DNA from: Clostridiales bacterium
Lineage (GTDB): Bacteria > Bacillota > Clostridia > Saccharofermentanales > Saccharofermentanaceae
Length of the DNA: 64,000 nt
Direction of reading: 5' to 3'
NCBI GenBank assembly: GCA_017513085.1
Contig: JAFWDK010000003.1
Span: forward strand, 32,001-96,000
Shown in pieces: positions 53,191-64,000 of the stretch; the first letter of the stretch is position 1; each line of letters begins with the position of its first letter. A program made the position numbers and the translations under genes. The notes under the pieces are model-generated. The model did no database searches. It saw only the letters and a list, made by a program, of their open reading frames with translations, and had not been told where the DNA came from.

Positions 53191-54635
<1,445 letters not shown>

Positions 54636-54745: not shown

Positions 54746-55744
54746 TCATTCGAACTCAGAGATGGAAACATGCTCTCCTTTCCGGATCCTGTTCCGAAGG
54801 GTCATCAGTTCATGATCCTTTTTCTCTGCCAGGAGCAGAACGGCCGCTTCCTGATCATCCCGATGGATGATCTTATCAATACGGCCATTTCTGATCACGA
54901 TACGTTTCGGAGACATCAGGGAAAGAATCGGGTCATGGGTCGCGATCAAGACGATCTTATCATTACCTGTCAGAAGCTCCATCGCCTTTCTTCGATCGAT
55001 ACCTGCATTTTCGATCTCATCGATCAAAACGATCGGCGCACGTGAGAGGTAGGCACAGTCTGCAATCATCAGCGCACGTGACTGTCCTCCGCTTAAGGCT
55101 GTCACCGCGGTATCCCGGGAAAAAGGCTCACCAGCCAGGGAAACAGCTACCTCATACACTTTCTGCACTTTCCCGGGGATCTCTTCCTTTCTGAGGAAAC
55201 ACTCGGCATGCATGGTAAGAAATTCTTCCACATTCATATCCAGGACGAAATTCATATTCTGCGAAAGCTGAGCGATCGAACGTCTTCTTTCGCCTGTTTT
55301 GAGCCATTCTTCCTTATTTTTTCCGTCAATCAGTATCGTTCTCTGTGTCGGAGTGTCCTTTAGTGCCTGCCACTCGATATCTTCCAGGAGGCGGCTCTTT
55401 CCGGAGCCGGTTTCACCGACAATGGCGATCATTTCACCTTTTCGGATAGTTATAGGATCGAAGCACTCACTCGCACCATCTTTCCCAACTCCCGGAATGA
55501 TCGTGATGGATCCGACACTTCGGATCTCCTCGGAGAGACATTCCGACGCACTTCGGAGATAGGCAGAAAATTCCTCTTCCACTTCGTTTCGGCTCATCTT
55601 TCTCTGCTCGAAAAATGAATCCGGAAGCTCCATCAGGTTTTCAGAAAAGCTCTTTTCCTTATCCCAGATCACCTCAAAGTCATCCAGATAGTATGGCAGA
55701 TAGGGGTAGTCCTTCTCCAGTTGCAAAAGCGGGATCGTCAGCAT
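54746..55744 (-). CDS. ABC-type ATPase with an N-terminal extension and no partner permease
   Basis: GETGSGKS, LSGGQSRA, IDEIENAG and ATHDP motifs. Confidence 0.85.
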   Translation of the reverse strand: MLTIPLLQLEKDYPYLPYYLDDFEVIWDKEKSFSENLMELPDSFFEQRKMSRNEVEEEFSAYLRSASECLSEEIRSVGSITIIPGVGKDGASECFDPITIRKGEMIAIVGETGSGKSRLLEDIEWQALKDTPTQRTILIDGKNKEEWLKTGERRRSIAQLSQNMNFVLDMNVEEFLTMHAECFLRKEEIPGKVQKVYEVAVSLAGEPFSRDTAVTALSGGQSRALMIADCAYLSRAPIVLIDEIENAGIDRRKAMELLTGNDKIVLIATHDPILSLMSPKRIVIRNGRIDKIIHRDDQEAAVLLLAEKKDHELMTLRNRIRKGEHVSISEFE

Positions 55745-55760
55745 TCATGTACCTTCTTTC

Positions 55761-56444
55761 TCAGATCTTGATGTGTTTAACGTTTCCGATCTGGTACTCG
55801 GTTCCTATCTTTGTTTCACCTAAACAATAGGAACAGAGCGCCATAGGCATCGGAAAACGAAGCGTCTCATTTTCGATTTCTCTCTCCATAGCCATATTCC
55901 GGATCGCCCGTGTGATCTCTGAAATTCCCTGTCCGGTAAGCCCGTTGACAGGAAATATCAGTGCTTTTGGATTAGAGGTCTCAACTCTTCGCATGAACAC
56001 TTCTCTTTCTGCTTGAGAAACGATATCTCCTTTTGTAATAAGTACAATATCTGCCAGTTTCAGGAGAGGACCGATTTTTCTGGGAGCCCGGATCCCGCTT
56101 AACTGATCGATCACACAGACAGCCAGCACATTTTTGATGTAGGGCGAGCATCGGTTACAAAGGCCGGCACTCTCCGTAAAAAGATAGTCCAGCTCTTCCT
56201 TTTTCCCCCAATCATAGACAGTCTGAATATTCGTGATGTAATAGTGATCGGGACAAAGTTCGGAAGAAAGTCCCTTTGCCGATGGGATCCCGGCCTGACT
56301 ATAGGTCTTGTCGTCTTCGGTCTGGAGGCAGTCAAACTTACACGCCCCCACTTTACTTCCATCTCTCATAATTTCTTTTAAGATCCGCGTCATAACGGTA
56401 GTTTTGCCCGTTGCAGGCGGTCCGGCAAAGGTTACCAGCTTCAT
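55761..56444 (-). CDS. HypB/UreG-like P-loop GTPase (putative metallochaperone)
   Basis: GPPATGKT, LCPDH, ESAGLCNRC, TKGD and a C-terminal CSYC. Confidence 0.85.
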   Translation of the reverse strand: MKLVTFAGPPATGKTTVMTRILKEIMRDGSKVGACKFDCLQTEDDKTYSQAGIPSAKGLSSELCPDHYYITNIQTVYDWGKKEELDYLFTESAGLCNRCSPYIKNVLAVCVIDQLSGIRAPRKIGPLLKLADIVLITKGDIVSQAEREVFMRRVETSNPKALIFPVNGLTGQGISEITRAIRNMAMEREIENETLRFPMPMALCSYCLGETKIGTEYQIGNVKHIKI

Positions 56445-57370
56445 TACTTTTCCTCCGTCATGATCTTCTTACATCTTTGGATTATTTCCGGAAGGGAGGG
56501 ATCATAGAGATACTCCCAGCCGACAAAGCGAAGACTTCCGGGAAGAGCATTGACAACACCTGTAATGTTACTCGGGAAGAATCCCTTCTCTCGGAAGATC
56601 CTGCCGGCCTCCTCGCGGCAGAGGATGGACATGAGCCTTTCCGCCTCGGGATTTGATTTTGAAGTTACAACAAGTGGCAGGATCGGTGCACCATCGCTGA
56701 ACCAGATGAGTTTCATTCCCTTCTGACGGGCTTTGATCTCCCCGAAGATCCAAGGCATCAGGTAGATATATGGTTTTTCGCCTTCGATTCCACCCGGCTT
56801 GATCATCTGTGAGGGATGCACGATCGCACAGATATTCTTTCTTAATCGTCTGATTCCCTCGTCTCCCGCAACTTGATGAATATATGTCAGAATGATCCCG
56901 TCAAACATGTGGCCGTCATCCGGAAATGCAATACTGTTTTCAAACTCACCCGAAAGCAGGTCAGAAAAAGCCTTCGGTTCACTTCTTCCCTTCGACTGAT
57001 CGGTATCCACGACCATGACCAGAGGAATGCACGAATAGATATCAAACATTCCTTTCGGATCAGAAAAGGAAGCAAACGCCGGATTCCCGAGAAGTGTTTC
57101 TCCTGATGCATGAAATCCTTTTTCTTTTATGACAGGATGATTGACGAGACCTTCGATACCTGTCCCCATGAAAACATCCGGATCACACTCTTTAAAGATC
57201 TTATCGACCCAGGATAAACCGAACTCCGCTAATGCGATGTTATATTCTTTCCGGTCAGAGATATACTCATCCAGATAATCCTGAAAAGGAAGCTGCACCA
57301 CACATGGAACACGTCCGACCAGTTTCGCTTCTTTATTCTCTGCTGTGTAATGAAGTTCTTCTTCTCTCAC
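56444..57370 (-). CDS. Substrate-binding-fold protein without a signal peptide
   Basis: VPC, HPSQM and WFSDGA motifs; GTG start with RBS GGGAGG; no hydrophobic leader. Confidence 0.7.
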   Translation of the reverse strand: MREEELHYTAENKEAKLVGRVPCVVQLPFQDYLDEYISDRKEYNIALAEFGLSWVDKIFKECDPDVFMGTGIEGLVNHPVIKEKGFHASGETLLGNPAFASFSDPKGMFDIYSCIPLVMVVDTDQSKGRSEPKAFSDLLSGEFENSIAFPDDGHMFDGIILTYIHQVAGDEGIRRLRKNICAIVHPSQMIKPGGIEGEKPYIYLMPWIFGEIKARQKGMKLIWFSDGAPILPLVVTSKSNPEAERLMSILCREEAGRIFREKGFFPSNITGVVNALPGSLRFVGWEYLYDPSLPEIIQRCKKIMTEEK

Positions 57371-58208
57371 GAAATCGATTCCTCCCTTCGACAACTGTCA
57401 CCTGTTCGCTTATGTCCCGACTGAGTACATCAATGGGTAGTACACATACATGTCTTTTCTCTTCGATCATAAAATCACGGATCCGCACATCAACATCAAA
57501 AGCCCTGCAAAGATTTTCTTCGGAAATCACTTCGTTTGCATTTCCGAATGAATTGCTTCCATCACGATTCAGGATCAGGGCTTTATCGGATATAGCCAGC
57601 GCGTGCTCCGGATAGTGAGTATTTACAATGGATGAGATGCCCCGTTCTCTGCACAGCTTATGGATCGTATTGATGACGATCAGCTGGTTTTTAAAGTCGA
57701 GATTCGACTCCGGTTCATCCAGTATCAGAAGTTCAGGATCTGTAGCTAATGCTCTGGCAATAAGGACCATCTGCAGTTCACCACCGGAGATCTCATTACA
57801 CAGCTTCCCGCGAAGCCGGCTCATCCCGACCATATCCAGACATTCTTCCGCAAAGCGGTAGTCTTTCTTCGTCGGCTGCGCCAGTATTCCCAGGTGGGCA
57901 TTTCGTCCGAGAAGAACCATCTCTTCTGTGGTATAGGAGAATGCGGAGCGCTTTGCCTGCGGCACATATCCTATCTTCTTCCAGATCTCCTGGTTCTTCC
58001 ATTCGTGCCATGGTTTACCATTGATATATGTACTGCCGGCACGCCATGGAAGGAAGCCGAGCGTGCATTTCAGCAGAGTCGTCTTGCCGACACCATTTGA
58101 TCCCAGGATCGAAAGGATCTCTCCCTCTTTGACAGAGAAAGAAAGGTTTTTAAGGATGTCAGGTCCTTTCTTATATCCGAATGATGCATCTTTCACCTCA
58201 AAGATCAT
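57333..58208 (-). CDS. Iron-chelate/cobalamin ABC ATPase (FepC/BtuD-like)
   Basis: GSNGVGKT, GYVPQ, ISGGELQ and DEPESNLD motifs. Confidence 0.9.
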   Translation of the reverse strand: MIFEVKDASFGYKKGPDILKNLSFSVKEGEILSILGSNGVGKTTLLKCTLGFLPWRAGSTYINGKPWHEWKNQEIWKKIGYVPQAKRSAFSYTTEEMVLLGRNAHLGILAQPTKKDYRFAEECLDMVGMSRLRGKLCNEISGGELQMVLIARALATDPELLILDEPESNLDFKNQLIVINTIHKLCRERGISSIVNTHYPEHALAISDKALILNRDGSNSFGNANEVISEENLCRAFDVDVRIRDFMIEEKRHVCVLPIDVLSRDISEQVTVVEGRNRFRERRRTSLHSRE

Positions 58209-59203
58209 GTTTTTACACCTCCTGTCCGACGAAGCAGAATAATAAATACCGGGGCGCCGATAATCGCAGTAAGGATTGAGATCGGCAGTTCCGCAGCGGT
58301 TGCAGATCTCGCAACTGTATCAATAAGCAGAAGGTACGTCGCTCCCAGTCCGATGCTGGCCGGAATAACATATTTATTATTGTTTCCGAACATCATACGG
58401 GAGATATGCGGGATCAAAATACCGATCCATCCGACCTTTCCGCACATGGCGATGACAGATCCGGTAATCATGGTAGAGGATACGATCGTAAGTCCCCTCA
58501 TCAGTTTCAGGTTGATTCCCATTGCCCTTGCCTCATCATCGTTTAATGAAAGAACATTCAGTTTCCATCTAAGACAGAAGAGAATGATGATACCGATAAG
58601 CATCGGGATCGTTCCGATCCACAGTTTTTGGAAACTGGTTCCGGATAAACTGCCCATAAGCCAGTATGTGATTTCCGGAAGTACATCCTGCGGATCCGCT
58701 ACATACTTTATAAGAGAAACCAGAGCTTCAAAAAGTGAGCTGATCACCATACCGGATAGGATCAGCATGACAAGCGAAGACTCACCTTTCACACGGCTGA
58801 TCATGTACACCAGCCATACGGATAAGAGACCCATAGCAAAAGCCGTTCCCTGAATTCCAAGAGATGGAAGCCGCAGCATAATTCCGAGCGTCGCCCCAAA
58901 AGAAGCGCCCGTGGCGACTCCTAAAGTATCAGGAGTCGCCAGGGGGTTGGAAAACATACTCTGAAAGGCTGCACCGGCAACGGCCAGACCCGCGCCTGCG
59001 ATAATCGCCAGGATCGATCTGGGAAGACGGATCTTATACAGTACCGTCTTCACATTCGGATCATCGACCTTCATGCCCAGGAGGACTTTTACGCAGTCTT
59101 TGATGGGGATCGAGTACCGGCCCACACCTAACGCGATCAGAAAAGATGCGACAAGTGCAATAGTAATGCCGATCACCCAGATTAATTCTGTTTTCTTTTT
59201 CAC
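58205..59203 (-). CDS. FecCD/BtuC family permease
   Basis: IRLPR, NPLATPDTLGV, WLMGSL and GWIGILIPH motifs. Confidence 0.93.
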   Translation of the reverse strand: MKKKTELIWVIGITIALVASFLIALGVGRYSIPIKDCVKVLLGMKVDDPNVKTVLYKIRLPRSILAIIAGAGLAVAGAAFQSMFSNPLATPDTLGVATGASFGATLGIMLRLPSLGIQGTAFAMGLLSVWLVYMISRVKGESSLVMLILSGMVISSLFEALVSLIKYVADPQDVLPEITYWLMGSLSGTSFQKLWIGTIPMLIGIIILFCLRWKLNVLSLNDDEARAMGINLKLMRGLTIVSSTMITGSVIAMCGKVGWIGILIPHISRMMFGNNNKYVIPASIGLGATYLLLIDTVARSATAAELPISILTAIIGAPVFIILLRRTGGVKT

Positions 59204-59224
59204 GTGTTCACCTTTGTCCCCGGA

Positions 59225-60481
59225 TCAGAGGCCTCTTGCCGCATCACGTGACGGAATGAACATCATATCCAGCTGCTCGTCAGAAAGATCATATCCGCAC
59301 ATTTCCTTATAGTATTCCTTTGCGATCTTACGGATATCCGTATCCTTGAAAAGATCCGGATAGATCACAGAAGCCATCCACTGCATAGTAACCGGAGAAT
59401 CTCCACCCGGTGTATAGCTTCTATAAAGACCAAGAGGCATCTTATAGACACGCTTGTTCTTTACTGCATTGATCGTGCTCCAATCATCTGTACCGATAGC
59501 ATTGTTATAGAGATCTTCCGGCTGTGTGCCGCAGAAATTGGTGATAATGATAATATCCGGATTCCATTCATATACCTGTTCCATCGATATCTTCAGGATA
59601 GAACCATCCGGCACTTCGCTGGCAACATTGTATGCATTTACGGACTCACACCACCACTGGCCGAAGAAGTTCACACCGGAGGCCACCATCGCCGCATCTG
59701 TGTACTTGAAGAGAACCAGGACGCGTGCCTTCTGATCATCCGGAATGTCCTTTGTTTTTTCGATGATATCCGCATGGACAGCATCACTCTTCTCCATAGC
59801 CTTCTTTGCAAAATCCGAACCGCCGAAGATTTGGTCGAGAAGGTCGATCCAATGTTCATAGGTCTCGATAATGTCATACTTCCAGGCAGAAGCAGATGTA
59901 GTAACTGCCGGGATGCCGGCTTCACGGATCGCTTTTGCCTGTTCCTGTCCGACACCAATGACAATATCCGGCTTAAGGATCAGGAGTTCCTCCAGATTTA
60001 CCTCATCACCACTGATAAAAGCTGTATTTGCGTTTAAGATCTCCGGGTAGATCTGTCCAAGAAGGCCGTTTTCCGCAGCACTCATAGATACCGGATGGAT
60101 ACCCACGATCTTTTCCGCAGAACCAAGATACTCTGCAATAACAGATGCCAGCGGATAGAAAGACCCTACTGCAATTCGATTGATCGTATTAGGAACCTCA
60201 ACGGTATCTCCGGCATGGTCGACAACAGTATGTGTGCCATTGGGATCACCAAACGGGTTCTCGGAATCTTTGCTTTCTCCTTTGACCTCTGTGCTGGTCT
60301 CGGAAGACTCCTCCGAAGAACTTTCGGAAACACTCTCCGACGTCTCCGCACTGGTCTCCTCGATCGTTTGCGTATCAGAAGTCGACGAAGCGCTCGTTTC
60401 CTCATCTTTCTTTGCACAGGCCGACAGGGCGCAAAGTGCAATAGCTACCGACATTAAGCCGGCAAGAAGTTTTTTCTTCAT
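59225..60481 (-). CDS. Iron-chelate/cobalamin-type binding lipoprotein
   Basis: Lipobox LSAC; S/T/E-rich linker; VVDHAG, NLEELLILKPD, SMEQVYEWNPD and AVKNKRVY motifs. Confidence 0.9.
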   Translation of the reverse strand: MKKKLLAGLMSVAIALCALSACAKKDEETSASSTSDTQTIEETSAETSESVSESSSEESSETSTEVKGESKDSENPFGDPNGTHTVVDHAGDTVEVPNTINRIAVGSFYPLASVIAEYLGSAEKIVGIHPVSMSAAENGLLGQIYPEILNANTAFISGDEVNLEELLILKPDIVIGVGQEQAKAIREAGIPAVTTSASAWKYDIIETYEHWIDLLDQIFGGSDFAKKAMEKSDAVHADIIEKTKDIPDDQKARVLVLFKYTDAAMVASGVNFFGQWWCESVNAYNVASEVPDGSILKISMEQVYEWNPDIIIITNFCGTQPEDLYNNAIGTDDWSTINAVKNKRVYKMPLGLYRSYTPGGDSPVTMQWMASVIYPDLFKDTDIRKIAKEYYKEMCGYDLSDEQLDMMFIPSRDAARGL

Positions 60482-60557
60482 AATAATCCTCTTTCTACTT
60501 ACTTTAGTAAGAACTATGTATATTTTTAAGCCGGTCGTTTAAAAGCGCCGAACGGGC

Positions 60558-61697
60558 TTACAGATCATGTTCAAGCCATTTATTTTCATCCAGGTAATTC
60601 CAGTAACTGTTTTTCCCTACACGGCTTGAGACGGAGTACTGCGGAAAAGGTATCTGATCTTTTACCCCTCCCGAAAACTCTATAAATAACGGGTCCGCGA
60701 TCAGAAGATCCTTCTGATCCTTCACTACGGAAAGGATCGTATCTTCATCACTTAGATAAGTGGATACATCATCTTCATGTTCGATCGTATATAGCTTGCA
60801 GTCTATATTCTCTGACCGCAGGAAGTTTCGTATCGAGTCCCCGATCACCGAGTCAGCAATAATGACTCCGGATCGTCGGGAAGTCTTAGGACTAAGCACC
60901 TTAAACACAGCGGTCTTCCCTTCGCGGACCAGTTCAAGATACGAACTCATCTGTTTCTGTCCTATCGGGAAATTCACGATATAAGGTGTCTGATACTTTT
61001 TTTCCATAGCTTTGGCGATCGCAAGTCCCGCCTGGTTCCAAACCAGGTTCAAAGTGACTTTCTCCGGATACTGGTAAAACAAAAGAGAGCCGTACATGCC
61101 CTGTTCCTGCATCAGACAGATACCATTCTCCGTAAGTCTGCCGCAAAGGCTGTCATACACTTCCTGATGCATATCCAGCGGGGAGATGCCCGGAATAGCT
61201 ACTGTTCCTCCATCTTTCCAGGGTTCGCGCTTCTCCGGGTTTTTCTCGTAATAGTCTGTGAGTGCAAAGTAAGCCATAAGAATACCGTCATAGTAAGAAC
61301 CTTTAATTCCCGCGGTCGGAAATCCGAAACAAGGGATACCGGTTCTATTCTCGACCGCTCTGGCGACTCCGTTAAAATCAAAACCGATGACATTCGGCAC
61401 CGGACTTCCGACAATAGCTATAAACTTCGGATGTCGTTCCAAAGCATTCTTTGTGATCTTACCGATCAGTTTCTCATCGTCACCGAGGATAGCATCCACC
61501 TTTCGAAGGCTTGTGCAATACACCATAGAATGACTGCCGTACCATCTCGGCTCATCGAAATGGGTATAATTTCCCGTGCAGCCTGCCGCATCATGAATGC
61601 AGATCATACCGCCGAGATCAAAAAGCGCGGAGCATACCCCTGAATAATCTCCTGCAAAAGGAGGAAGATACATACAAACTTTATGTTTTTTATTCAT
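60558..61697 (-). CDS. Nitrogenase component 1-like subunit (NifK/BchB-like)
   Basis: PFAGDYSGVCSAL, IHDAAGCTG, ILGDDEKL and IVGSPVP..IGFD motifs. Confidence 0.85.
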   Translation of the reverse strand: MNKKHKVCMYLPPFAGDYSGVCSALFDLGGMICIHDAAGCTGNYTHFDEPRWYGSHSMVYCTSLRKVDAILGDDEKLIGKITKNALERHPKFIAIVGSPVPNVIGFDFNGVARAVENRTGIPCFGFPTAGIKGSYYDGILMAYFALTDYYEKNPEKREPWKDGGTVAIPGISPLDMHQEVYDSLCGRLTENGICLMQEQGMYGSLLFYQYPEKVTLNLVWNQAGLAIAKAMEKKYQTPYIVNFPIGQKQMSSYLELVREGKTAVFKVLSPKTSRRSGVIIADSVIGDSIRNFLRSENIDCKLYTIEHEDDVSTYLSDEDTILSVVKDQKDLLIADPLFIEFSGGVKDQIPFPQYSVSSRVGKNSYWNYLDENKWLEHDL

Positions 61698-62947
61698 CAG
61701 ACGATTCCTCCGTATTCATCGATCAGTTTTCGGATATCCGCTTTTTCTTTCATCGCGAACCGCATAGTATCCATAAGGATCCTTATTCCCTGATATCCGA
61801 GCATTCCTTCATCAGAAGAGATATCTGCAACATATCGCGCATTGCTTAAGTAGGCAGCTTCTTCGCCTACTGCCAAAGCTATTGTTTCCGTTTCCGAACG
61901 GAAAACCGAATCCGGATGATCCCCCTGAATGATCTCGACCTGCGGATACTCGTTAAGGAGGATATCGGCATACTTCTGATCGGGTCCCACCACTTCAGAA
62001 AGATAGACACGCGTTACACGGAAACCGTATTCCAGAAGTGCTACGGCCAGAGATAGGGGAAATACGGTTGCACTGTCAGAAACAAAGACCGGCACATCCG
62101 CAACTTCTTCTCTGGCATAATAGATCGCCTGTTCACATAAGGAACGGTCGTCTTTAATCTTTTCAGAAAGATCTTCTCCCAAAAAGTCAGACAGATCCTG
62201 ATACTCTTTAGTGACAGTATCAATATCATAGGATATCGGCATTTCCACGTGTGTAGCGCCGGTTCTTTTCTCCAGACGTCTCAGCGCATATCTCACAAAT
62301 GGTTTTATCACTATAGATCTTCCGGAGCGGGACATCTCCTCATACTCTGAAAAAGTACTGCACGAGGAAATCTGGCGGACCATATGGCCATTTTGATTCA
62401 GGACCCGGATCAGCTCGTTATCTTCCGGGATCCCGACGAAGTTTCCCCAGAGCGTTACACCATCATCCGTCTTCTCCCAATCGGGTAGCACACTTAACAT
62501 CGCATCAAACGTCGTGACTGCCGGTGGCATCTTGGTGGAAGATGCAATTGGATTCATATGTCCGGCACGGAAAAGGATATCCGGATATCTTTTCCCGAGG
62601 ATCGCGGTCACTTTCTCCATATCCGTACCGATAAAATCATCCAGGCAGGAAACATAAATAAAGAGAAGACGGATGTCCTTTTCCGTTCTTTCCAGAAGCT
62701 CATCCACGCCATCCAGGATCTCCTGATCGTATCCCTCCACGATGTCGCTCTGGTCAATATAAAGATAAGAAATACGGTCTTTATAGTGATGCTGGATCGC
62801 GCCGAGCGCCCCATGCCGGAAGCACGCTGACGGGCAGACAAACAAAAGATAAGATCCGGGGATAAGTGCAGCGACACGGATGATTCCCCATCCGTCATGC
62901 GCAGGATTGCAGTAACAAAGGTTCGGTTCAAATCGCATGTTCATCAC
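61697..62947 (-). CDS. Nitrogenase component 1-like subunit (NifD/BchN-like)
   Basis: [14 protein letters not shown] and [11 protein letters not shown] motifs; coupled to the nifH-like gene. Confidence 0.85.
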
Positions 62948-63756
62948 CTCCGAAGCAGATAAATCAATTCTTCGGTATACGGATCTTTTTGTATGGACGT
63001 ATCATCGCCATGGCAGAGACTGATTATTCTATCTGCCAATTTTTCATAATCCTTAGCGATCGACGATCGGGGAAACTTCTCGATAACAGTCTTTCCCTCC
63101 TGTTCCGCCGCCTGCACCATCTTACTTCTATGGATATGTGAAATAACCGGAAGGTCGTGTTCTCTGGCAAAGCGGGTAACAAGATCCTTTTCATTCTCAA
63201 CAAGCCGCTCATTTAAAATCAGGCCACGTACACGGGCGTATCCGCGCTCTTTGAAATTGTCTACGGCACGGGAAATATTATCTGCGGCAAAAAGAGCCAT
63301 CATCTCACCGGAAGTAACGATAAAGACATGTTCCGCATATCCGTCACGGATCGGCATGGCAAAACCGCCACAGACTACATCGCCGAGAACATCATATAGA
63401 ACGATATCCGGGGCGTATTTTTCAAAAGCACCGAGCTCTTCCAGTTTCTGGAGAGCCGATATGATACCAAGACCAGCACATCCGATACCGGGCGTCGGTC
63501 CACCCGATTCTACACAGAGGACACCGTTATATCCATCGTGAACGAGATCAGAAAGCTCGACGTCTTCACCCTTCTCCTTGATCATTCCGAGGACCGTGCT
63601 GATCTTCTCGCCCCCCATCAGGTTTTTAGTAGAGTCCGCTTTCGGATCGCAACCGATCTGCATGACTTTATAACTGCGTGAAAGAGCGGCTGCAAGATTC
63701 GACGTTGTGGTTGATTTGCCTATTCCGCCTTTACCATAAATAGCTATCTTTAACAA
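62944..63756 (-). CDS. NifH-like Fe protein (Group IV / Nfl type)
   Basis: [31 protein letters not shown] and [14 protein letters not shown] motifs; both [4Fe-4S] cysteines present. Confidence 0.93.
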
Positions 63757-63810
63757 TTTTCTACCCCTGTATTGCCTTTTCTATAAAATTGAATATAATA
63801 ATCTCAATCG

Positions 63811-63826
63811 GTTAGCCACTGCTAAC
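63811..63826. promoter_or_regulatory. GTTAGC-N4-GCTAAC operator upstream of the nitrogenase-like operon
   Basis: GTTAGC-CACT-GCTAAC. Confidence 0.85.
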
Positions 63827-63885
63827 TGTGACAGTATACTAAAAAGGAGTTTCAAAAAAAGTTGCCTGTGCAACATCTCAAAAAA

Positions 63886-64000
63886 ATGTTAAAAAACGAA
63901 ATACACGCATTACAATCAGATCTATTTCGAGGATTCAACCCGGACGAAATCGATAGCATCCTGTCTCGGACCTGCTCATGCAGGAGAAAATTTACGAAGA
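63886..64000 (+). CDS. Probable Crp/Fnr family regulator, N-terminal fragment
   Basis: Open to the window end: MLKNEIHALQSDLFRGFNPDEIDSILSRTCSCRRKFTK resembles the start of a cNMP-binding domain. Only 38 codons are visible. Confidence 0.5.
   Translation, partial: MLKNEIHALQSDLFRGFNPDEIDSILSRTCSCRRKFTK

Follow-up and report, generated by a model that had tools for sequence, protein, structure and literature searches.

What would a nitrogenase-like reductase do inside an operon for metal-chelate uptake? Nitrogenase-like enzymes are known for N2 fixation, for the making of chlorophyll and F430, and for the cleavage of organic sulfur compounds. The question is raised by a nine-gene operon at positions 54746–63826 of a 64,000-nt stretch of DNA (the window, whose positions serve as coordinates throughout) from a Clostridiales bacterium of the Saccharofermentanaceae (GenBank assembly GCA_017513085.1, contig JAFWDK010000003.1, positions 32,001–96,000). 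An initial annotation of the window had proposed that the reductase acts on an imported metal chelate, a reading supported by our comparisons of sequences, family models, and gene neighborhoods. With a probability that we put at roughly 0.6, the locus is an iron-starvation operon that couples an uptake pump to a nitrogenase-fold reductase acting on the imported iron chelate. The constant partnership with a type II ABC importer, together with iron-type control, points to iron-chelate uptake followed by ATP-driven reduction inside the cell.

Operon Organization and Transcription

Open reading frame coordinates and domain searches place nine tightly packed, co-oriented genes on the minus strand (54746–63756). 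The initial annotation had counted eight but listed nine, and the identities that it gave to all nine stand. The reductase genes are those of a NifH-like ATP-dependent reductase (H; 62944–63756, 270 aa, Fer4_NifH 313.8 bits), with a P-loop, switch regions, and the [4Fe-4S]-bridging Cys93 and Cys129, and of two nitrogenase component-1 subunits. Of these, the D-like subunit (D; 61697–62947, 416 aa, Oxidored_nitro 78 bits) has an invariant Cys42 and Cys101, a near-invariant Cys38, and an HMNPI motif, and the K-like subunit (K; 60558–61697, 379 aa, Oxidored_nitro 72 bits) has an invariant Cys40 and Cys61. The importer consists of a class III (Peripla_BP_2) substrate-binding lipoprotein (59225–60481; PF01497, 68 bits) with a signal peptide, a lipobox Cys22, and a Ser/Glu-rich linker, a FecCD/BtuC-type permease (58205–59203; FecCD PF01032, 293 bits), and an ABC importer ATPase (57333–58208; PF00005, 109 bits). 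Three accessory genes follow, encoding a cytoplasmic, signal-less SBP_bac_6 protein (56444–57394; its start codon is uncertain and its Atlas record begins at residue 9), a Cys-rich G3E (CobW/HypB/UreG-type) GTPase recognized by domain search (55761–56444), and a soluble ABC-type ATPase (ABC_tran; 54746–55744) with a 95-aa N-terminal extension and no membrane partner.

The genes had been described as mostly overlapping. Four overlaps are present (H/D, 4 nt; D/K, 1 nt; permease/importer ATPase, 4 nt; SBP_bac_6/G3E, 1 nt), and there are gaps of 21 nt between the binding-protein and permease genes, 16 nt between the G3E and soluble ATPase genes, and, the largest, 76 nt between K and the binding-protein gene. 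No terminator-like site was found in this 76-nt gap by a simple scan.

In four sheep-gut metatranscriptome runs from three studies, contigs were found that span much of the operon and are 95–99% alike to it, which indicates that they come from a related strain. RNA libraries can contain DNA, and the contigs give no expression levels; they bridge the soluble ATPase/G3E, G3E/SBP_bac_6, SBP_bac_6/importer ATPase, importer ATPase/permease, permease/binding protein, and D/H junctions. The contigs would agree with co-transcription at these six junctions; no RNA contig bridges the D/K junction, nor that between K and the binding-protein gene, a point weighed below. Coverage by RNA contigs is absent at 61157–61790 and 63059–64000, from which nothing firm follows. 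Contigs from several runs end within the same 25 nt of the K/binding-protein spacer (60497–60522), which hints weakly at an internal 5' end or at processing there.

Conserved Linkage Between Reductase and Importer

In our search for relatives, a profile of 17 D-like proteins was run against one-per-species genomes; it found 225 places, of which the best 80 were fetched. Linkage was scored in the 62 loci that extend at least 1 kb before and at least 5.2 kb after D. In 61 of the 62 loci, the genes for H, K, the binding protein, the permease, and the ATPase are found no more than 9 kb from D, in nearly constant order; the single exception lacks only the ATPase match. The pairing of reductase and type II importer first noticed in the window is thereby kept across three phyla, Bacillota, Spirochaetota, and Synergistota. 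Carriers comprise rumen and gut Clostridia, Lachnospiraceae, Christensenellaceae, and Oscillospiraceae, the nearest being metagenome-assembled genomes (MAGs) from goat and cattle rumen (97–98% identity). Among the named carriers are Romboutsia lituseburensis, Clostridium lamae, a C. butyricum MAG, Faecalispora, Anaerobacterium, Petroclostridium, several Treponema, and Synergistaceae/Fretibacterium.

The family is large, with 429 proteins (50% identity) matched by the D profile at E ≤ 1e-30 and 1415 at E ≤ 0.001 among 1.84 billion representatives, some of them D–K fusions. Within a sample of the same class, a D-like gene (E ≤ 1e-30) occurs in 11 of 299 genomes and 8 of 175 genera, the genome studied here included. 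Public records name the proteins ‘nitrogenase iron protein’, ‘nitrogenase component 1’, ‘oxidoreductase’, ‘AAA family ATPase’, ‘hypothetical protein’, or ‘iron ABC transporter permease’, and in our literature searches, which fell short of all papers and supplements, we did not find the linkage of reductase and importer described. Matches in the Atlas likewise bear just generic names. One apparent D–SBP_bac_6 fusion (P0064) was set aside; it consists of a truncated D joined to the C-terminal half of an SBP domain on a single 2.4-kb public contig and is probably a deletion or an assembly chimera.

The same genome holds a second, paralogous cluster on another contig (C5:243936–250326), arranged as permease–ATPase–H–D–K–binding protein, whose products are 55% (H), 28% (D), 31% (K), and 46% (binding protein) identical to those of the window. 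No copy of the operator palindrome described below was seen upstream of this cluster. Its ATPase bears a C-terminal TM1266-like domain (‘iron-only hydrogenase system regulator’). In several of the sampled genomes, two D-like genes lie 7 kb from each other, and extra copies of the binding-protein gene are found in several loci.

The last three genes, which the initial annotation had taken as part of the operon, are part of it here but are accessory in relatives. Among the 46 loci with wider flanks, the G3E and soluble ABC ATPase genes occur together in 16, and all three, with the gene for the cytosolic SBP_bac_6 protein, occur in 11; the soluble ABC ATPase gene is always accompanied by a G3E gene.

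A Separate Branch of Nitrogenase-Like Proteins

The P-loop, switch regions, Cys93, and Cys129 of H are invariant in 76 sequences. H is 50–60% identical to NifH proteins, and its best match among solved chains is Clostridium pasteurianum NifH (265 bits, vs. 151 bits for BchL). It falls below the NCBIfam cut-offs for CfbC (334 vs. 402), nifH (333.8 vs. 394.35), and BchL (207 vs. 345). D and K reach at most 50 bits with Nif models whose cut-offs are 427–654, and 28–30 bits with BchN models (cut-offs 324–420). None of the 71 D-like proteins reaches any NCBIfam cut-off, and the CfbD model (TIGR03282) matches neither D nor K of the window nor any of the 71. NifE is the best named family, matched by 60 of the 71 D-like proteins (best E 4e-17) and, at 50 bits, by K of the window. 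Among solved structures, the D profile comes closest to VnfD (56 bits) and NifE (54 bits), and the PDB entries 9d9u and 9fmg, titled just ‘Nitrogenase’, score 38 bits.

In a maximum-likelihood tree of 47 component-1 proteins, the references were one each of NifD, NifK, NifE, and NifN (Mesorhizobium plasmid) and of BchN, BchB, BchY, and BchZ (Roseinatronobacter plasmid), together with four D/K proteins from a third nitrogenase-like system of the same genome. The D-like proteins (100/100, stem of 2.42 changes per site) and the K-like proteins (100/100, stem of 1.63 changes per site) each form a clade that includes the genome's own second paralogue and lies outside all references; deeper relations are unsure because the references sit on long branches. 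A quick tree of H likewise gathers the family into one group (SH-aLRT 80), with NifH, BchL, and BchX outside it. Any separation from MarD, IsrD, CfbD, and Group VI, whose sequences are outside these trees, is by models or descriptions. H, D, and K are accordingly set apart from the Nif, DPOR, and COR clades and miss the NifH, CfbC, and CfbD cut-offs, which agrees with the initial view of a reductase distinct from these groups.

The cysteines of the two subunits give a further indication of class. By alignment, D Cys42, D Cys101, and K Cys40 occupy positions that hold cluster ligands in Nif and Bch proteins, K has Pro at the later cluster Cys of NifK/BchB, and D Cys38 and K Cys61 are peculiar to this family. 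No other Cys is invariant, and none past Cys101 is so in the 71 D-like sequences. P-clusters are held by three Cys of the alpha and three of the beta subunit. Here, two Nif-aligned Cys are present in D and one in K, and D lacks the Cys/His ligands of FeMo-co. The aligned pattern agrees with a single [4Fe-4S] cluster between the subunits, as in DPOR, COR, and CfbD, and suits neither a P-cluster nor FeMo-co. Overall, the enzyme is a new, large branch of the nitrogenase-like family.

The likeness of H to NifH, and the public name ‘nitrogenase iron protein’, could be read as a true or alternative nitrogenase, or as a sulfur-compound reductase of the MAR/ISR kind. Either is most improbable, as P-cluster and FeMo-co ligands are missing, D and K lie under every Nif/Vnf/Anf cut-off, and neither nifB, nifE, and nifN nor sulfur genes are found nearby. 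In the window, PF00148 matches only D and K, so the initial statement that it holds no nifB/E/N, and that the operon is not for N2 fixation, is upheld. The sole NifB-like gene of the genome is on another contig (C5:19706–20840). It belongs to the third nitrogenase-like system (C5:19706–28918), in which the nifB-like gene, its frame interrupted in the 3' part, is followed by a NifH gene, a cysteine-synthase-like gene (cysK), and two D/K-like pairs. This NifH is above the NifH cut-off, and both D/K pairs are below the Nif cut-offs. The system looks like a sulfur-linked Group IV NFL cluster, and it is this nifB-nifH-cysK-DK-DK arrangement, instead of the operon in the window, that fits the sulfur-linked Group IV outlined in parts of a published account (PMC13753814).

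Another explanation starts from NifE, the best named match of the D-like and K-like proteins. H, D, and K could form a NifEN-like scaffold that, when iron is short, builds or repairs a metal cluster from imported iron, aided by the G3E GTPase and the SufC-like ABC ATPase, with the transporter only supplying metal. The accessory genes do resemble metallochaperones, but they are absent from most loci; the NifE scores fall well short of cut-off, the D and K clades exclude NifE and NifN, and no NifB or radical SAM partner is found nearby. In addition, a class III binding protein with many invariant aromatics suggests an organic chelate, not a bare ion. We regard such a scaffold as very improbable.

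The Operator and Its Candidate Regulator

The operator palindrome GTTAGCCACTGCTAAC (GTTAGC-N4-GCTAAC) lies at 63811–63826, 55 nt upstream of the start of H, within the 130-nt spacer between H and a divergent Crp/Fnr-family gene, and is the likely site of a DtxR/MntR-family repressor. The same palindrome had been noticed before the operon, feoAB, and ABC pairs, and the counts confirm this: with at most two mismatches, GTTAGCNNNNGCTAAC has 14 matches in the window vs. 0.94 expected, a number reached in none of 100 shuffles. Sites lie upstream of feoB (34645 and 34721) and of three ABC half-transporter pairs (26144, 30716, and 50757), and further units preceded by the palindrome are an ECF-type transporter, AraC and TetR regulators, an esterase-like gene, and enolase. 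A ZnuA/ABC-3 operon in the window has no such site. The 3.06-Mb genome contains 19 exact copies, 12 of them on this contig, where three are found just past the window ahead of methyltransferase and ABC genes. The relaxed form GTTAG-N6-CTAAC occurs 44 times in the genome vs. about 3 expected, and its matches outside contigs C23 and C6 are mostly within coding sequence or repeats. Conservation of the motif also extends to relatives, where 44 of 73 loci have the strict palindrome, and 49 of 73 the relaxed RTTAG-N6-CTAAY, in the 300 nt before H, vs. a background of 0.013–0.014 per 300 nt elsewhere in those loci.

Two palindrome sites on contig C6, away from the cluster of sites around the window, head an operon encoding a DUF3793-like protein, a flavodoxin, and a 126-residue protein of the DtxR/MntR family (Fe_dep_repress PF01325, 37.4 bits vs. 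a cut-off of 26). In 10 of 16 other genomes, one or two copies of the motif stand directly upstream of the orthologue of this regulator or of the operon that it shares with the DUF3793 and flavodoxin genes. When 50 genomes with the reductase cluster were compared, 21 of the 24 that have the strict palindrome before H were found to encode a close orthologue (at least 95 bits), vs. 11 of the 26 that lack the palindrome (Fisher p = 0.0012, which is overstated because the genomes are related). The best PDB match of the regulator is MntR (55 bits), and the Asp, Glu, and His ligands are kept in the alignment. It has C-R-I-E-H at the position of E-G-I-E-H in Bacillus subtilis MntR; a Cys at that metal-site position is the mark of iron-sensing DtxR/IdeR. 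The alignments and genome associations make this DtxR/MntR-family protein the likely binder of the palindrome, and a regulon of feoAB, flavodoxin, and chelate importers would read as one for iron, with manganese possible. The metal operator postulated at the outset is in this way tied to a DtxR/MntR-family regulator, feoAB, and flavodoxin, that is, to an iron-type regulon.

Two other candidate binders were considered and set aside. Three TetR paralogues are encoded just upstream of operator and ABC units, but no TetR gene adjoins the distant flavodoxin site. The Crp/Fnr-like regulator, whose gene diverges from H (63886–64000, plus strand, continuing past the window, where it is L001:1886–2551), would suit the 5-N6-5 format of the site, but its adjacency is independent of the palindrome. 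A homologue is adjacent to and divergent from H in 17 of 66 loci, including the palindrome-less loci of Romboutsia and C. lamae; both features are present in 10 loci, the palindrome only in 29, the Crp gene only in 7, and neither in 20. True orthologues of this regulator are found only in close relatives. The gene probably encodes a local regulator, which may sense the substrate.

Further copies of the operator were seen in other settings. An exact second copy (54583–54598) lies between the last gene of the operon and its downstream neighbor, an enolase gene that is the only copy found in the genome; this site also scored as a terminator-like hairpin in a simple scan and may end the operon, control enolase, or both. 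An island of about 60 kb (window 18858–54600 plus C23:94001–112572) has about 15 operator copies. Its genes encode, among others, an ECF transporter with a Trep_Strep S-component, at least four ABC half-transporter pairs, three FtsX-type ABC systems, FeoB (with a His_Phos_1 gene after it), TetR and AraC regulators, methyltransferases, and an ACT plus metallo-beta-lactamase-fold protein. The two sites that head the flavodoxin operon are outside this island. At C6:43080, another exact copy separates a heavy-metal P-type ATPase gene from an Rrf2-family gene that adjoins IscS/IscU-like genes. Several contig ends (C8:39338–39694, C12:56364–56646, C26:169522–169730, and C32:48774–48982) carry two GTTAG-N6-CTAAC sites with a spacing of 208 nt, which resembles a repeat at which the assembly was interrupted. 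Open reading frames built from a repeat of about 20 residues (PNSPVIRFRDAGSITGENEKM-like) adjoin operator-like sites at C14:242965–244941 and C7:66612–66941.

Importer and Accessory Proteins

The FecCD permease, class III binding protein, and ABC ATPase, encoded in one gene set, make up a type II ABC importer. The best named match of the permease is BtuC (199 bits, below cut-off), that of the importer ATPase is a heme ABC ATPase model (146 bits vs. a cut-off of 261), and the binding protein scores 51 bits with the IsdE model. Among PDB structures, the binding protein is best matched by 4ovk (172 bits; ligand not known) and then by HI_1472 (70 bits). Its invariant residues include Arg354, Lys347, Tyr, and Trp, with many aromatics. 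For the SBP_bac_6 protein, neither a PDB relative nor a signal peptide was found. In 19 sequences of the G3E GTPase, Cys39, C64-P-D-H67, C96-x-x-C99, Cys110, and C204-x-x-C207 are invariant, with seven invariant cysteines; we take the C-P-D-H motif to resemble the Cys-Pro-His nickel site of UreG. The G3E GTPase and the soluble ABC ATPase may receive metal or mature the enzyme.

Some of these features would suit the salvage or remodeling of a non-iron tetrapyrrole or chelate, such as a corrinoid or a Ni or Co complex, with the G3E protein as the metal chaperone, as in F430 and B12 pathways. The permease scores best with BtuC models, the G3E motif is like the nickel site of UreG, the binding protein has Ni-binding relatives in the PDB, and H scores equally for CfbC and NifH. 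Against this, the operator is common to feoAB and flavodoxin, the G3E gene is missing in 30 of the 46 wider-flank loci, CfbD is matched by none of the 71 D-like proteins, and no chelatase or tetrapyrrole biosynthesis genes are among the recurrent neighbors. An Rfam scan of the window gave no family at the gathering score (no separate search for an ANTAR element was made), and no riboswitch, the cobalamin riboswitch included, was found in the window or in seven diverse related loci. A non-iron substrate is, on balance, very unlikely.

Proposed Function and Substrate

For the metal sensed, the electron path, the substrate, and the fate of the metal, we infer the following course. When the metal co-repressor is scarce, the DtxR/MntR-family repressor would leave its GTTAGC-N4-GCTAAC site at the promoter, and the lipoprotein, the FecCD/BtuC-type permease, and the ATPase would bring in an iron chelate. 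Electrons from ferredoxin or flavodoxin would pass to the NifH-like dimer, where ATP hydrolysis would drive them, at very low potential, via the inter-subunit [4Fe-4S] cluster to the chelate held in D/K. This cluster would be held by D Cys42, D Cys101, and K Cys40, together with either D Cys38 or K Cys61. If the chelate is heme, reduction of its macrocycle would loosen the iron without oxygen, comparable to the action of DPOR, COR, and CfbCD on Mg- and Ni-tetrapyrroles, and the accessory trio, present in about a third of loci, would take up the freed metal or mature the enzyme.

As the substrate, we tentatively rank an iron tetrapyrrole (heme) first, and a low-potential ferric siderophore second. 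Heme is favored by the precedent of the tetrapyrrole reductases and by the fact that heme cleavage with oxygen is closed to strict anaerobes. If the substrate were instead a low-potential ferric chelate, for example a tris-catecholate, the enzyme would be a ferric-siderophore reductase that takes imported Fe(III) directly to Fe(II), replacing hydrolysis of ligand esters. The same operator precedes siderophore-type systems in which the island is rich, namely ABC half-transporter pairs (putatively of the YbtPQ/IrtAB type, the label of the initial annotation), AraC regulators, and an esterase-like gene, and half-transporter pairs also occur near H-D-K in 27 of the 80 loci. The extra binding-protein copies and paralogous clusters would fit many related ligands, and the invariant Arg354, Lys347, Tyr, and Trp of the binding protein would be compatible with such chelates. 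By contrast, known siderophore reductases are simple flavin or Fe-S proteins, and no siderophore biosynthesis genes were seen in the loci. Moreover, the [4Fe-4S]-only nitrogenase-fold enzymes of known substrate treated in parts of a 2026 review all use tetrapyrroles (PMC13474568). We consider a siderophore reductase unlikely, less so than the other alternatives discussed above.

Several observations weigh against the reading of the locus as an iron-starvation operon for chelate reduction. The strict palindrome is missing upstream of H in 29 of the 73 loci, and the regulator is present in 11 of the 26 genomes without the palindrome, 5 of which have a site variant with one or two symmetric base changes. 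The regulator has Asp at the position of DtxR Met10, so that sensing of Mn is possible. Fur-like boxes (at most two mismatches) are found upstream of H in 3 of 73 loci vs. 15 of 2000 random windows, a signal too weak to support iron control outside the DtxR-bearing lineages. The second-best structural match of the binding protein, HI_1472, is a molybdate/tungstate binder, and Ni-binding proteins are also among its PDB matches; the family matches of the transporter, all far below cut-off, cannot separate heme, corrinoid, and siderophore. The junction between K and the binding-protein gene, where reductase and transporter genes meet, is bridged by no RNA contig. Finally, genomes often carry two or more paralogous clusters, a pattern that suits a family of substrates better than a role confined to heme.

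In its widest form, the proposal of chelate reduction would make this the first nitrogenase-fold enzyme for nutrient metal acquisition: an oxygen-independent, ATP-driven reductase, induced by iron hunger, that frees iron from heme or a low-potential ferric chelate, spread horizontally among gut, rumen, and oral anaerobes, with paralogues for different chelates. We give this form slightly less than an even chance. The function of the clade is directly approachable because transporter and regulation point to the class of substrate. If true, the proposal would explain how many Clostridia, treponemes, and Synergistota gain iron from chelates without oxygen, and Clostridia would have a further DtxR/MntR regulon, of iron type, for which the operator is defined. 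It would also provide a role for part of the ‘pseudo-nifH’ signal of Clostridia, which, in portions of an earlier report, is noted without a function and as inflating nifH surveys of guts and sediments (PMC8597730).

Comparison With Known Systems

The closest descriptions in the literature are of nitrogenase-like groups that do not fix N2. Groups IV-A, D, E, and F are described as nflBHDK sets with sulfur genes next to them (PMC13474568, PMC13753814), and Group VI as adjoining radical SAM suites (preprint 10.1101/765248). Neither description appears to fit this system. The Group IV NFL systems (MarBHDK, IsrBHDK, IV-A/D/E) and Group VI Nfl resemble it in being non-N2-fixing and found in anaerobes, with many clades lacking an assigned function (PMC13474568, PMC13753814, 10.1101/765248). 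Unlike Group IV, however, the operon has no adjacent nflB, no P-cluster-like Cys set, and neither sulfur genes nor radical SAM suites among its recurrent neighbors. The family branches outside the nflB-linked cluster of its own genome, and is provisionally set apart from Mar and Isr by description. Group VI, also compared by description, has a NifH sister to BchL/BchX; H is here nearer NifH (265 bits) than BchL (151 bits), and no radical SAM families are among the annotated clusters of recurrent neighbors.

CfbCD comes close in two respects. The score of H with the CfbC model (334) is as high as that with NifH, and CfbCD has a [4Fe-4S]-only component 1 acting on a metallated tetrapyrrole, according to parts of the 2026 review (PMC13474568). 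The same parts state that the [4Fe-4S]-only enzymes with a known substrate (DPOR, COR, and CfbCD) act on metallated tetrapyrroles, and that several clades have no assigned function (PMC13474568). By contrast, H is under the CfbC cut-off, CfbD is unmatched, CfbD is homomeric where D and K are distinct, and CfbCD is a methanogen system where this one is bacterial.

DPOR (BchL/BchN/BchB) and COR (BchX/BchY/BchZ) share with this system a NifH-like ATPase, a heteromeric component 1, and, as proposed here, a single inter-subunit [4Fe-4S] cluster. D Cys42 and Cys101 align with the cluster Cys of BchN and BchY, and K Cys40 with an Asp of BchB and a Cys of BchZ. The present family differs in its predicted all-Cys ligation, and it forms separate long-stemmed clades far below the BchN, BchB, and BchL cut-offs. 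DPOR and COR serve a pigment pathway, whereas this family is in an uptake operon under a metal operator.

With regard to the proposed role, the nearest parallels are the radical SAM enzymes ChuW/HutW and the dechelatase HmuS, which release heme iron anaerobically beside a heme importer, although their folds and chemistry are unrelated to those of H, D, and K. With regard to transport, the BtuCDF, HmuTUV, and FecBCDE importers have the same composition of FecCD permease, class III binding protein, and ABC ATPase. Unlike in those systems, no member reaches an equivalog cut-off here, and the importer is joined to a nitrogenase-like enzyme in 61 of the 62 loci.

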